Positions 9,903-17,347 of a DNA stretch of 49,367 nucleotides are shown one piece after another (the first letter of the stretch is position 1; each line of letters starts with the position of its first letter). Below the pieces are notes generated by a model. It did not search any database and was not told the DNA's origin. It saw only the letters and a list, made by a program, of their open reading frames with translations. This DNA comes from Candidatus Parcubacteria bacterium (GTDB taxonomy: Bacteria; Patescibacteriota; Microgenomatia; Levybacterales; GWA1-39-11): positions 1-49,367 of the forward strand of contig QZIP01000049.1 of assembly GCA_003599595.1 (NCBI GenBank), given 5' to 3'. A program made the translations under genes and the position numbers.

Positions 9903-10194
9903 TTGTACATGTCCTTATAGTGGGCCTGTCCGTACTGGGGACCACTATGCATGTCCATTTCATAAAACTTATGATGCTATAATTAATGGTCAACATGTAA
10001 AAGTACTGCCATATGCTCAGACGGTTGAATCTGAAATGACTAGGATGAAACAGTTATTGGCTAAATGTCTATGGGAGTTACGTCAGCATAATGCTGAATA
10101 TGCTCACATCACCAAGGAGGATTTCCTACGTGAATTAGAGCAATATTGCACCGATGCTGACAAAGATAAAAGCCAAGAACTTCCAAAGCCTTGA
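9889..10194 (+). CDS. hypothetical protein
   Basis: AGGAG SD; CTC...CPFH Zn-like motif. Confidence 0.55.
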   Translation: MRHPNCTCPYSGPVRTGDHYACPFHKTYDAIINGQHVKVLPYAQTVESEMTRMKQLLAKCLWELRQHNAEYAHITKEDFLRELEQYCTDADKDKSQELPKP

Positions 10195-11068
10195 AGAAAT
10201 AGAAGTTGATCTAAATCATCCAGTTACAGTATTTTGTGGAAAAACAGGTTCAGGTAAAAGTAGCTTGTTACGAGCTCTTAGATGGATTGTTTTAAATCTG
10301 CAACCACAAAAAGTAAACTTTGTTAAACGTGGTAAAAAAACATTTGCTGTTGAGTTAGAAGTTGATGGAAATCTAATCAATAGAACCAAACCAGATAATG
10401 TGTATAGATTAAATGGATCTGAATACAAAGCGTTTGGTACTAAAATTCCAGAAGATATTGATAAGATACTAAATGTTGACAAACTCAACTTTTCTCATCA
10501 ATTAGATGGTCCTTTTTGGTTTGATTTGAGTCCTGGTCAAGTAAGCAAAGAACTTAATTCAATCATAAATTTGGAAGTGATAGATTCCTCGTTATCTAAA
10601 GCTAAATCGTCTATCACTTCTTCTAAAAAAGAATCTGAGGTATGTCAAAATAGATTGAAGGAAGCCAAGGCTAAAAAAAAGAGTCTGTTATGGGTGAAAG
10701 AACTCAATATTGATTTGAAAAAGTTAGAGGAGATGAAAAGTGAAATTATGGAACTTAGTGTACAAGCCTCTAGGATATCTGAATTAATAAAAGCCGGGGC
10801 TAACGCCGCTATTAAAGTTCAGACGCTTTCGCAAGCCTTCCTAGACTGCGAGGAAGCCCTCTCAAAATACCCCTTAGACCTAATTAATAAGGTTAAGAAG
10901 CTTCAATCATTATTACAAGAGTCTGAAGCAGCTAAAAAGAGGTTAGATGAGGCTGAAAAATCTGAAAAGGAAGCCCAATCTAAACTAGATGAAATTAAAG
11001 GTGTATCATGTCCAACTTGTGGAAAAGAGATGAATTCTGATGAATACGACAATCACGAAGAAGAATAA
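10154..11068 (+). CDS. Rad50/SbcC (gp46-like) ATPase, N-terminal half
   Basis: IKAKNFQS strand, Walker A GKTGSGKS, Q-loop NFSHQLD, coiled coil, terminal zinc hook CPTCG; no Walker B. Confidence 0.85.
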   Translation: MLTKIKAKNFQSLEEIEVDLNHPVTVFCGKTGSGKSSLLRALRWIVLNLQPQKVNFVKRGKKTFAVELEVDGNLINRTKPDNVYRLNGSEYKAFGTKIPEDIDKILNVDKLNFSHQLDGPFWFDLSPGQVSKELNSIINLEVIDSSLSKAKSSITSSKKESEVCQNRLKEAKAKKKSLLWVKELNIDLKKLEEMKSEIMELSVQASRISELIKAGANAAIKVQTLSQAFLDCEEALSKYPLDLINKVKKLQSLLQESEAAKKRLDEAEKSEKEAQSKLDEIKGVSCPTCGKEMNSDEYDNHEEE

Positions 11069-13633: not shown

Positions 13634-14236
13634 ATGTTGGATCTTTCCCAAATACGTCAGAAAACGAACAAATTACTTCATGAACGTGAATTTGCAGCCA
13701 AGCAAGTAGAACTAGAAAAAGCAGCTTTAGAAAAGATTGAAAACAAACTGAAGGATCTCACAGAAGTTCAAGAGATTCTTCAACTTCACGCAGAAGCTGT
13801 TCAGAATAGAGCACAAAAACAAATCTCTTCAATTGCTACTCAAAGTCTTAAACATGTATATGGACCAAATGTAGAATTTAGAATTGAATTCAAGCGTTCT
13901 AAAGGTAAAACAGAAGCAGAATTGAAATTCATAAAAGATGGTCAAGAGTTTGATCCCAAAGAAGAAACAGGTGGTGGAGAATTAGATGTAGCTTCTTTGG
14001 CTCTTAGAATGTCTTGTTTGATGTTATCCAGACCAAGACTTCGTAGATTAATAGTTGCTGATGAGCCGTTTAGAAATATCAATGGTGAAGAATATCAACA
14101 AAGAGCTGGAAATTTAATTCAGCTCCTTGCTGAAGAAATGAAAGTACAATTTGTTGTTGTTTCGGACGACGAATGGCTTAAAGTGGGTAATGTAATTGAT
14201 ATGTCAACATTGAAGAATAAGAAATTACATCAGTAG
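13634..14236 (+). CDS. Rad50/SbcC ATPase, C-terminal half
   Basis: Coiled coil, signature variant TGGGELDVASLALR, Walker B LIVADEPF, final strand VVVSDD. Confidence 0.82.
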   Translation: MLDLSQIRQKTNKLLHEREFAAKQVELEKAALEKIENKLKDLTEVQEILQLHAEAVQNRAQKQISSIATQSLKHVYGPNVEFRIEFKRSKGKTEAELKFIKDGQEFDPKEETGGGELDVASLALRMSCLMLSRPRLRRLIVADEPFRNINGEEYQQRAGNLIQLLAEEMKVQFVVVSDDEWLKVGNVIDMSTLKNKKLHQ

Positions 14237-15006
14237 ATCAAATTGACCTTTTTCAATAATTTTATCCACATTATTAACTTTCTTCCCTGTTCTATGATCT
14301 ACACATCTTGATTCCATATAATTATACGTCCTGATTTTATCACCTCTCCCACCATCTCCTAACTGCTGTTTTCTTATATCTTTATATGATGAAAACTTCT
14401 GATTGTTAGTCAATTCAGTTATTTTAGCAGATAATACCCTTCTAGCTTCTTTTCTATTCTTTCCTTGATCCCTTCCATTAATAAACACGGATAAACCAGT
14501 TGGTTTGTGTTTCAATCGAACTGCACTAGCTACCTTATTAACATTTTGTCCACCTGCGCCTTGTTTTCCAGTTTGAAATGATTCTTCTAAATCTTTTTCT
14601 TGTAAATTAATTTTAGAATTCTGTGGTGGAAGTGGAAGTACAGCAACAGAAATCATAGAAGTTTGTTTTCTTCCATTATGTTCTGTAGGTGGTATTCTTT
14701 GTACACAGTGTTTACCAGATTCCATACGGAATAATTTACCAGCATTACTACCAGTAAACTTGGCTACTATGTGTCCAGGATCATTATCTAATAATTCAGA
14801 TTTTAAACCATTACGAATAGCATATTTGACATATGCATCATAAAGGTTTTCTACAAACAGCTTACTATCGGTTCCACCAACACCGAATTGAATTTCAACA
14901 ACTATTTCTGAGGAAAGGTCAAAGCCAGTCCTTACCTCCAGAGCTATTATTAGCTAGTTGTTGAGAGGAGCTAAAGACACCCCCATGGTTGATTTGAATT
15001 ATTCAT
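14225..15006 (-). CDS. class-1 peptide chain release factor (RF1-like PxT, GGQ; lacks domain 1), predicted to need two +1 programmed frameshifts, about 259 aa
   Basis: Motifs VEIQFGVGGTDSKLF, ESGKHCVQRIPPTE, GRKQTS, GAGGQNVNK, HKPTG, GDKIRTYNY, DHR. Homology runs 65 codons upstream of ATG 14725 with no ATG/GTG/TTG in that frame. SD-led ATG at 15006 joins via CTT-TAG-C and CTT-TGA-C. Confidence 0.88.
14918..14939 (-). promoter_or_regulatory. RF2-style +1 frameshift cassette 2 (UGA-containing)
   Basis: GGAGGT AAGGAC TGG CTT TGA C; the +1 frame (GAC) is the release-factor frame. Confidence 0.8.
14970..14985 (-). promoter_or_regulatory. RF2-style +1 frameshift cassette 1 (UAG-containing)
   Basis: TGGGGG TGT CTT TAG C versus E. 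coli prfB AGGGGG TAT CTT TGA C: same internal SD, 3-nt spacer and slippery CUU-U. Confidence 0.8.
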
Positions 15007-15056
15007 TGTGGAACCTTTCTAAACAAATTGAAAATAATTAACCGGCCCTAAACCCT

Positions 15057-15083
15057 ATTATAACGTTCAAACGTGTCTTACAA
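15057..15083 (-). promoter_or_regulatory. putative sigma70-type promoter of the release factor gene, with palindrome ACGTT-TG-AACGT in the spacer
   Basis: TTGTAA-15 nt-TATAAT about 50 nt upstream of ATG 15006; spacer is short. Confidence 0.45.
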
Positions 15084-15132: not shown

Positions 15133-15951
15133 TTAAGCGTAATAATCTTCTGGAATCATTTCATTTGGTCTGGTGTCTAATTCCATACTTTCAGTAATTT
15201 TTGCCATAAATGGTTCAATTAGTTCTTGATTTTGCTTTTCGATTTTTTCTATTACTGAAACTATTTTTCTATCAGACCATCCATTACGAACCCCAATTTC
15301 CAATACTCCTTCAGGTGTTAGTAAGTATTGATAGCCTTGATTTGTATTAGGATGATTACCTTTTTTGGGTTTTATAGGAATACGTTCAATCAAGTTATTT
15401 TTGATAAGTCTCTGCAATATACCACTAACTGATGAGGGTTTTAGATTTGAATCATTTTTATTGTATTCCCTACTTATAGAAGAATAATTATTGTTCCCAT
15501 TTAGTATTGCATTCAATACATCCTTTCCAGAAATTCCAATTTTAGCACGATTATTTGAATTTGAATTTGTTACTACTTTTGATTTGAGTTTAGCTTTTTC
15601 CTTACTGTTTCTTAATACAGGAGCCATCTTTTGTTTTTTAGGAACTACAATTTCTTCTTTTTTATGTGATGGATATATTTGATATTCCCCGGTTCTTTTG
15701 GCTGGACTGACATTATAATCCAATTTTTCAAATGCGTGAGAAGCACTACCAGATCTTATTACATATGGATCATGACTACTGTAATATGAATTAGGATCAT
15801 GTTGTTCTGCAGTGCTAGTTTTAGATTCAATTTCGTTTTTAGGTTCTTTTTTTATTTCATCTTTAACTTGTTTTAATTGTGTATTTGGATTCTTCTGTTT
15901 TGGTACAGATGTATTTTCAGAACCAGTATTTTGATTATTTGTTTCTGTCAT
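15133..15951 (-). CDS. basic protein with winged-helix-like domain; paralog of 16376..17224
   Basis: VSGILQRLIKNNLIER...YQYLLTPEG wHTH pattern; C-terminus DTRPNEMIPEDYYA. Confidence 0.7.
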   Translation of the reverse strand: MTETNNQNTGSENTSVPKQKNPNTQLKQVKDEIKKEPKNEIESKTSTAEQHDPNSYYSSHDPYVIRSGSASHAFEKLDYNVSPAKRTGEYQIYPSHKKEEIVVPKKQKMAPVLRNSKEKAKLKSKVVTNSNSNNRAKIGISGKDVLNAILNGNNNYSSISREYNKNDSNLKPSSVSGILQRLIKNNLIERIPIKPKKGNHPNTNQGYQYLLTPEGVLEIGVRNGWSDRKIVSVIEKIEKQNQELIEPFMAKITESMELDTRPNEMIPEDYYA

Positions 15952-16376
15952 TATTGCCATTTGGTAGAATAACTACTTGCAACTCTGCGAAATCCTCTTG
16001 AACGATATACAGCCCAAAAATACTTTCCTTTAGAAACAGCTTTTCTAAAAGCATCCACTTCACCTCTGCTACTGGAATACAAATATGGTAATCCAGAAGA
16101 TTTCTTAAATTGAACTAACACTTCTTCTGTTTCTGGAAAGAACTTGAACCAAAAGATATGAGAAGAAGCAGGATATAAAGCTGTTTCACCACGCCAAAAG
16201 GAATCATCTTCAACTTCTTCTTCCTCTTCTTCTCCAAATAAAGCTTCTAATAATAGTTCTTCAGCTGTTAAGTCAGTTTCTTCCTCTTCATCAATAGTAT
16301 TTGGAAACTTTTTAGATGGAAGAGGAGGTCTTTTCTGAATTTTACCAAAATTGGATTTATTGAATTGTTTAGCCAT
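15951..16376 (-). CDS. KTSC-domain protein with acidic linker
   Basis: SSHIFWFKFFPETEEVLVQFK...YLY...AVSKGKYF matches the KTSC pattern. Confidence 0.7.
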   Translation of the reverse strand: MAKQFNKSNFGKIQKRPPLPSKKFPNTIDEEEETDLTAEELLLEALFGEEEEEEVEDDSFWRGETALYPASSHIFWFKFFPETEEVLVQFKKSSGLPYLYSSSRGEVDAFRKAVSKGKYFWAVYRSRGFRRVASSYSTKWQ

Positions 16377-17224
16377 TATGCGTAATAATCTTCTGGTATC
16401 ATTTCATTAGGACGGGAATCTATATTCATATATTCTGAAACTTTTGAAGCGGCTGTATTTTCCATTTTTTCTAAAGCTTGTTTTTTAAGTTTTGCAGTTT
16501 TTCTTTTTAATTGTTTATTTTTAGATTCTATTTTTCTGATTTCTCTAGCAATTTTTTCGTTTGACCAACCATTATTTATGCCTATTTCTAAAATTCCGTA
16601 TGGAGTTAAACTGTATGTATATTTTTGTCTAGCTCCCTCACTTAATACATTAGGTTTCATTGCATATCTACTAACTAATCCACGAACAACCATTCTTGCT
16701 AACATGGTAGATAATGCTATATTTTGGATTTTATTATCATCTTGAGAAAGATTTAAATTAATCAAACTACCAAAATTGTCAGCTCCATTAAATATAGAAT
16801 CTAATATTCTACGAGAAGTAATAGCATTTTTTTGTAATTTTCCATATGAAGAACCACCGCGCTTGGCTTGACTGCCCCTTAATCCTATTTCATCTACAAT
16901 TTCTGGTTTTTGAGTCTCAAATGGAGATTGTTTTATTAATTTTGTTTTAAGTTCGCGTCTTTCTTTTGGTGTTCTTTCTAATATGGGTGGATCAGACTGG
17001 TTTGGATCAGAAACTACTTGCTCTGGTTTACCTGGTCTACCTACTGTATATTTTGTATATACATTGTCAGGTCTTGGTTTTGTCCAGGGGGTATAATTAA
17101 TATCAAAAAAGTTTGTATTGCTTCTTGATTCAATTTCCTTTTTTGGTTCCTTTTTAACTTCATCCTTAACTGGTTGTGGTTTCTGTATTTCAGTTTTAGG
17201 TTGTTTTGGTGTATTTTCATTCAT
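16376..17224 (-). CDS. basic protein with winged-helix-like domain; paralog of 15133..15951
   Basis: LSTMLARMVVRGLVSR...YTYSLTPYG; C-terminus DSRPNEMIPEDYYA. Confidence 0.7.
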   Translation of the reverse strand: MNENTPKQPKTEIQKPQPVKDEVKKEPKKEIESRSNTNFFDINYTPWTKPRPDNVYTKYTVGRPGKPEQVVSDPNQSDPPILERTPKERRELKTKLIKQSPFETQKPEIVDEIGLRGSQAKRGGSSYGKLQKNAITSRRILDSIFNGADNFGSLINLNLSQDDNKIQNIALSTMLARMVVRGLVSRYAMKPNVLSEGARQKYTYSLTPYGILEIGINNGWSNEKIAREIRKIESKNKQLKRKTAKLKKQALEKMENTAASKVSEYMNIDSRPNEMIPEDYYA

Positions 17225-17242
17225 AACACAAACCTATTTAAG

Positions 17243-17315
17243 TGGACCCGAAGGGAATTGAACCCTTCACAGGTTGCTTGCAAGGCATCCTCGCCCCCTT
17301 GGATCATGACAGCCC
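17243..17315 (-). tRNA. tRNA-Ala(UGC), atypical structure, CCA not encoded
   Basis: 73 nt; G3:U70 and A73 Ala identity; anticodon loop CUUGCAA; T arm AAGGG-TTCAATT-CCCTT; weak D arm and imperfect acceptor stem. Confidence 0.75.
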
Positions 17316-17347
17316 ATTCTAATATTGTAGTTTATCCATAATAATTA

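Follow-up and report, generated by a model that had tools for sequence, protein, structure and literature searches.

A short RF1-derived phage release factor encoded behind a predicted serial amber-plus-opal frameshift gate

The locus and its two-cassette leader

The window analysed here is an entire contig (C4, 49,367 nucleotides) of a 1.4-Mb bin and consists of phage DNA, with genes for a major capsid protein, a head-tail adaptor, tail fibres, SbcCD and an RNA ligase of the Rnl2 type (174-1316). Its coding density under code 11 is 0.885, its long ORFs end in TAA (35), TAG (13) or TGA (10), and no suppressor tRNA was called in the bin. Eight contigs (C1, C4, C12, C14, C28, C29, C30 and C47; 287 kb) are similar in tetranucleotide use and are probably pieces of one large phage that was binned with a small-genome bacterium; a terminase is found on C14, RtcB on C12 and a tRNA cluster on C1. 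The bin carries its own RF1 (on C5, with a shortened domain 1) and RF2 (on C45), and all 30 of its 30 relatives have only two release factors. Neither RF3 nor PrmC was found above cut-off in the bin.

On the plus strand, SbcC/Rad50 is apparently encoded in two pieces, an N-terminal ORF at 10154-11068 and a C-terminal one at 13634-14236, and the SbcD-like nuclease between the two halves has an extra N-terminal domain (phrog_2072). The C-terminal ORF overlaps the stop codon of the release-factor gene by 12 nt, tail-to-tail. Upstream of the release-factor gene lie two minus-strand ORFs (15133-15960 and 16376-17224) which look paralogous, with a near-identical C-terminus of 12 residues, and for which no Pfam or PHROG match was found. 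A tRNA-like 76-mer with a TGC (Ala) anticodon (17241-17316, minus strand) was called by neither ARAGORN nor Rfam; a 97% identical copy is located on C1 (56914-56989).

The body of the release factor (231 aa, ending in TAA) occupies 14225..14920 of the minus strand. Upstream of its Asp codon at 14920 the frame is open for 11 codons only, with no ATG among them. An ATG is found at 15006, preceded by a Shine-Dalgarno-like site with an AAGG core (15013..15020, minus strand), which in relatives is mostly of the AAGGAG type and lies in the same place. This ATG opens a first leader segment of 11 codons that runs into UAG (14971..15006, minus strand). The segment ends in cassette 1 (14970..14985, minus strand), where a +1 slip is predicted at the amber codon: a G-rich SD-like hexamer (14985-14980) is followed by a 3-nt spacer and CTT-TAG-C (14976-14970). 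The slip would lead into a second segment of 17 low-complexity codons in the +1 frame, which ends in UGA (14919..14972, minus strand) within cassette 2 (14918..14934, minus strand). There the SD-like TAAGGA (14934-14929) and CTT-TGA-C (14924-14918) predict a second +1 slip, into the release-factor frame. Both cassettes match the anatomy of the E. coli prfB site, and the RF2-type arrangement SD-N3-CTT-stop-C is present twice. The path from the ATG to the release-factor frame needs exactly two CTT-stop +1 slips in series, and the predicted product with both slips taken has 259 aa. A first-pass annotation, made from the sequence of this DNA, had described a 28-aa leader in place of domain 1. Domain 1 is indeed absent, but the leader is not encoded in one frame; it is the sum of 11 and 17 codons linked by two +1 frameshifts.

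A loose form of the SD-N3-CTT-stop-C pattern, set up after the family described below had been inspected, has 19 matches across the 1.4-Mb assembly; two of these are on C4, both of them in the leader. No stimulatory RNA structure was detected at the leader (z -0.73), there was no Rfam match at the locus, and the standard scan gave no promoter above chance. A perfect TATAAT with a -35 hexamer matching at four of six positions (15-nt spacing; 15057-15083, minus strand) lies 50 nt above the start. Among 68 family loci, 12 have a sigma70-like site upstream (5.9 expected), and the start regions of L021, L026 and L244 look leaderless.

Gene callers report only a 166-aa ORF starting at 14725, and since they truncate such genes, the family is mis-annotated as fragments. 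The short call, together with an in-frame ATG path that needs a single TAG readthrough, could be taken to mean that the gene is a decayed RF1 or an assembly error, or that it is translated either from an SD-less ATG at ~14987 with one amber readthrough or from the ATG at 14725. However, both breaks are complete prfB-like cassettes with chained frames, in a layout common to relatives. The ATG at ~14987 lacks an SD site and is not common to relatives, and the 166-aa form would be without the invariant alpha5 tip. The purifying selection reported in the next section also speaks against this explanation, which we regard as extremely improbable.

The release-factor body and its origin

The body is an RF1-derived class I factor with domains 2-4; its residues are numbered here along the minus strand from the Asp at 14920 (residue 1). 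Pfam detects PCRF, aligned from profile position 100 onward only, and RF-1. In NCBIfam the two RF1 models score 208.1 (cut-off 400) and 198.7 (cut-off 423.25), compared to 153 bits for RF2, 50.8 for PrfH (TIGR03072, cut-off 166.65) and 36.6 for ArfB (cut-off 100). The body is below every cut-off, yet the RF1 models outrank those of RF2, PrfH and ArfB. An AlphaFold2 model built on a 67-row alignment (pLDDT 91) has ribosome-bound RF1 structures as its top PDB matches (TM 0.84-0.86), with RF2 close behind; PrfH is not among the structural matches listed.

Three motifs named in the first-pass annotation were borne out. The PxT motif HCVQRIPPTE is located at residues 71-80, with Q74, P77 and T79 corresponding to Q185, P188 and T190 of E. 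coli RF1, so that the glutamine is of the RF1 type; RIHTS (RF1 195-199) is changed to RKQTS at residues 84-88; and the catalytic GGQ (14546..14554, minus strand) is intact at residues 123-125. In the recognition loop (14657..14710, minus strand) the equivalents of R186 and T198 are retained as well, and Lys replaces Ile196 (Arg213 in RF2) and Gln replaces His197. The tip of helix alpha5 (residues 10-18; 14861..14884, minus strand) keeps its GG and has two family-specific changes, Asp at RF1 Glu123 and Lys at Ala125. This tip had been described as RF2-like, which is true of the query sequence but does not hold as a conserved trait of the closest clade, where Gln is found at 116 in 16/33 members and Thr at 122 in 7/33.

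Of the RF2 traits, neither the SPF motif nor V202 nor D143/W144 was found in the body, which has the RF1-type L/F at the latter positions. It combines RF1 traits (PxT with Q185 and T198; GGQ and the fold of domains 2-4) with departures from RF1: domain 1, a length of ~360 aa, a score above the cut-off, E123 and I/V196-H197 are all missing. An HMM of domain 1 built from 141 cellular RF1s was run on the 1.5 kb upstream and found nothing in 70/70 phage members, while 4/4 controls gave matches. Domain 1 is described as serving RF3 recycling and as dispensable for release (PMC1586002). Its loss would by analogy make the factor independent of RF3, and here the first-pass annotation is followed.

Its second suggestion was a rescue role. 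A PrfH- or ArfB-like factor for damaged or non-stop ribosomes would resemble the present one in some respects: PrfH (RFH, with RtcB2) is likewise a class I factor with GGQ and without domain 1 (PMC1586002, PMC9304027), RtcB is encoded on C12 of the same bin in DNA of similar base composition, and the Rnl2-type ligase is on C4 itself. However, domain-1 loss alone is no pointer to rescue, since 5 of 160 cellular loci also have their start very close to domain 2. The body has PPT and GG where PrfH has SXY and GP (PMC1586002), its PrfH and ArfB scores are far below the cut-offs, and no RtcB, whose gene lies directly upstream in the case of PrfH, was found in the 126 phage sequences around family members, the bin's copy being on a separate contig. 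PrfH is characterised by an activity restricted to ribosomes cleaved at the decoding centre, for which PMC9304027 gives the assay. ArfB (YaeJ; PMC8012679), a GGQ domain with a basic C-terminal tail, differs as well, as the body retains domains 2 and 4 and the full stop-reading loop. The proposed likeness to PrfH was not upheld, and rescue is in our view a very improbable function.

For the phylogeny, a FastTree of 244 rows grouped the short phage factors with a support of 86; PrfH formed a long branch in this tree that is uninformative for placement. With PrfH omitted, an IQ-TREE mixture model on 77 rows recovered a single phage clade containing all 39 of the 39 sampled rows (support 100, stem 0.81). 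This clade falls with RF1 and not with RF2 at the split between the two (support 100). Judged by their sequences, the phage factors are derived from RF1, and no single position within RF1 was recovered. Five cellular RF1s that group with Patescibacteria (L081, L095, L161, L176 and L194) begin almost at domain 2. The dN/dS ratio is 0.05-0.15 in 7/11 pairs, dS being saturated in the other four, and the phage-only clade is under purifying selection. A decayed RF1 fragment, which the first-pass annotation had named as a refuting case, is excluded.

A family of gated phage factors

A scan of viral contigs with the single protein found no relative, whereas an alignment-based scan did. Of 517 confirmed viral matches, the best 80 supplied family DNA, as did 14 + 25 pattern matches and five huge-phage GenBank records with clade members (LR756511, LR745206, LR756501, LR756502 and LR756504). 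Duplicates, three full-length RF1s, the Lak RF2, one contig repeat and the truncated L036, which has a gate but whose frame stops after ~150 release-factor residues, were removed. The final sample consists of 75 sequences, 70 of them at <90% identity. The best 119 database homologues from 8,000 scored candidates are without exception 204-293 aa long. The matches listed in metagenome and genome scans contained ordinary cellular factors at ≤43% identity; as these scans cover the listed matches only, they are no evidence that the clade is absent from cells.

Using a path-choice rule set by the analyst, on which the gate calls depend, and a slip-site rule that requires the stop in the A site, 62 of the 70 members are gated, 30 by frameshift (21 with one slip, nine with two) and 32 by in-frame stops (30 with one, two with two). 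Seven members have no gate and one has no path under the rule. The 39 slip sites use TGA (25), TAG (11) and TAA (3), the in-frame gates TGA (32) and TAG (2), which gives 57 TGA, 13 TAG and 3 TAA among all 73 gate codons. The double slips combine TAG+TGA, TAA+TGA, TAG+TAG and TGA+TGA twice each and TAA+TAG once; the order TAG+TGA occurs in the query gene and in one other member, L253 (same contigs as L001/L002). Because the members are kin, none of these counts represents independent events.

The slip sites have a common context, with G at position -7 in 30/39 and C after the stop in 25/39. In 32 members of the closest clade (one row without an anchor was excluded), CTT-stop occurs in the -1 frame 24 times and in the other frames once and not at all, with 0.66 expected per frame. 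A first frame test based on the nearest upstream stop gave 11/33 versus 1/33; it carries less weight, as further stops follow in the frame that is left. Among the homologues in which at least nine upstream residues were called, 50/63 show the trace of a slip site in the release-factor frame, Phe followed by D, E, S or N. The tree shows at least 18 switches of gate type, and the gate codon differs between strongly supported sisters (L253/L280, L264/L278, L247/L251). The gate has thus been selected repeatedly while its codon remained flexible. In L048, L073 and L077/L277 the slip cassette is found within domain 2 (codons 28-36) and not in the leader, which suggests repeated origin or relocation of cassettes. 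L269 has an apparent GTT-TGA instead of CTT-TGA at the slip position, upstream of its release-factor match.

Genome-wide stop recoding was considered as an explanation of the in-frame stops and was ruled out by coding density, by the free use of TGG in the long genes next to in-frame-stop members and by the frequent use of TGA as terminator in the same genes; 4/36 examined release-factor loci themselves end in TGA. Since the phages use the standard code, the gate stops are specific to this gene. No conserved partner gene was found near family members beyond HNH nucleases and tRNA clusters. An amber-anticodon tRNA (L003, 10594-10671) lies 4 kb from a member gated by TAA+TAG, and a tmRNA (L032, 1211-1572) is close to an ungated member.

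The family is therefore a stop-gated clade of short phage release factors, with an RF1-derived body of ~230 aa and a premature-stop gate close to the 5' end. From these sequence features, we are confident that the query gene very likely encodes a functional gated release factor.

Stop codon reading, mechanism and known systems

The GGQ motif is retained in 70/70 phage members, and their decoding head departs from RF1 at conserved positions. Position 123 is D in 69/70 members and E in 159/159 cellular RF1s, position 119 is E in 64/70 and position 125 is K in 66/70. At position 196 the closest clade has R or K in 28/33, as compared to I or V in 157/159 cellular RF1s and R in 8/8 RF2s. Q at 197 is not unique (4/159 RF1s, 4/8 RF2s). 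The RF1 determinants Q185 (33/33) and T190 (27/33) are retained in the closest clade, as are P188, L126, F127 and R303. Among the more distant members, UGA gates and a plain RF1-like loop both prevail, with V at 196 in 26/37.

These residues can be read in more than one way. T190 has been described as selecting against G at the second position, i.e. UGA (PMC5776981, PMC3974865). E123 is described as contacting U1 via the backbone (PMC3974865), so the change to D may be neutral. R213 of RF2 discriminates against G at the third position (PMC7530605), and R or K at 196 could accordingly weaken the reading of UAG rather than broaden it. On the other hand, the gate codon of prfB is always one that the product reads (PMC12421855). 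The gates on all three stops, the excess of UGA (57/73) and the altered head together make broad reading plausible.

UGA is the leakiest stop, which could explain its excess among the in-frame gates. We put the prospect that the product reads UGA in addition to UAA and UAG slightly below even. A relaxed specificity had also been proposed in the first-pass annotation; it is plausible, backed by the gate codons and the changes at E123, T119, A125 and I196 and not by the alpha5 motif that had been cited for it, and the earlier interpretation as a whole is partly supported.

In prfB, the slip competes with termination (PMC12421855). By analogy, a +1 slip would compete with release-factor binding at each of the two stops, and two cassettes in series would multiply into an AND gate (slow at amber and slow at opal) with a low basal leak. 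Full translation would likely occur only if the host terminated slowly at UAG as well as at UGA. The product would hydrolyse peptidyl-tRNA via GGQ, leave the ribosome without RF3 and so supplement the host factors as an RF3-independent backup. If it reads all three stops, it would shut off its own synthesis at both cassettes. We give this reading as a whole, a double-gated backup factor with broad decoding and self-shut-off feedback, an even chance of being correct. That it is a natural omnipotent RF1-derived factor with which large phages replace depleted or disabled host release factors during infection is possible, with a chance somewhat below even.

The same double gate could also precede a factor of ordinary RF1 specificity (UAA/UAG). 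In that case, the UAG cassette would provide self-feedback and the UGA cassette would be a feed-forward sensor of host RF2 or of termination stress. The RF1-type residues (PxT, Q185, T198, L126, F127, R303) are in line with this alternative, as are the HMMs and structures that place RF1 over RF2 (208 and 199 versus 153 bits). An RF1-type factor would also serve most genes, because most stops on the phage-like contigs are UAA (172/293). Still, UGA makes up most of the gate codons, the many members gated by UGA only would have no feedback from an RF1-type product, and the decoding head contains conserved non-RF1 residues. We consider ordinary RF1 specificity rather unlikely.

The cassettes might instead be dampers or timers that keep a potentially toxic or promiscuous factor at a low, fixed level, or the factor might disturb host translation instead of supporting it. 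Double gates with the same stop (TAG+TAG and TGA+TGA) would fit here, adding stringency without a new input, and RF2 overexpression is reported to be toxic, with relaxed RF2 variants releasing on UGG (PMC12421855, PMC7530605). However, all 39 called slip sites have a stop in the A site, which the calling rule demands; slipping that depends on a stop responds by its nature to the release-factor level; and both the catalytic core and the decoding core are intact. A damper or disturbing factor seems improbable to us.

What is new here is a phage factor of RF1 descent whose gene has a predicted amber frameshift gate and an opal one in series; the feature is real and conserved. Bacterial surveys found recoding of the prfB type neither in an RF1 lineage nor with UAG nor with two serial cassettes, and the phage gene extends it in all three directions. 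If the double-gated backup factor is the correct reading, it would imply that termination capacity is contested during infection by large phages. Laboratory-evolved RF2 is reported to have achieved three-stop reading only with collateral toxicity (PMC7530605); the family offers natural candidates for a single bacterial-type factor that may read three stops without cutting at UGG.

No paper on the short gated family or on a tandem amber-plus-opal gate was found in a search that covered subscription papers and supplements little, and huge-phage tables may list the genes. RF1 and RF2 genes are known from huge and recoded phages (PMC7162821; bioRxiv 10.1101/2021.08.26.457843), and the available text of these two sources does not mention truncation or gating. 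The Lak phage factor is a full-length RF2 of the SPY type, and the present phage is not recoded.

Compared to bacterial RF1 (NF001859, TIGR00019), the phage factor shares domains 2-4, PxT, Q185, T198, GGQ, the best HMM and fold matches and the side of the tree. It differs from RF1 in the missing domain 1, the scores below cut-off, D for E123, K for A125, K for I196 and Q for H197, a shortened loop at RF1 155-161, the predicted recoded expression and the lack of a prmC neighbour. The likeness to bacterial prfB (SD-N3-CUU-UGA-C) concerns the gate: the cassette anatomy is the same, as is its location close to the 5' end of the gene for a release factor, and cassette 2 is canonical. In contrast to prfB, there are two serial cassettes, the first with UAG, and the gene is RF1-derived and phage-borne. 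According to PMC12421855, prfB sites in 8,164 genomes use TGA (98.6%) or TAA (1.4%) and never TAG (0), and no programmed shift was found in prfA.

The nearest conceptual match is the class I factor of Mimivirus and Megavirus, a viral release factor whose two internal stops are decoded by recoding and for which autoregulation has been proposed (PMC3521657). That factor is eRF1-like, belongs to a eukaryotic virus and is described as using one readthrough and one frameshift, whereas the phage factor is of the bacterial RF1 lineage and is predicted to use two SD-assisted +1 slips.
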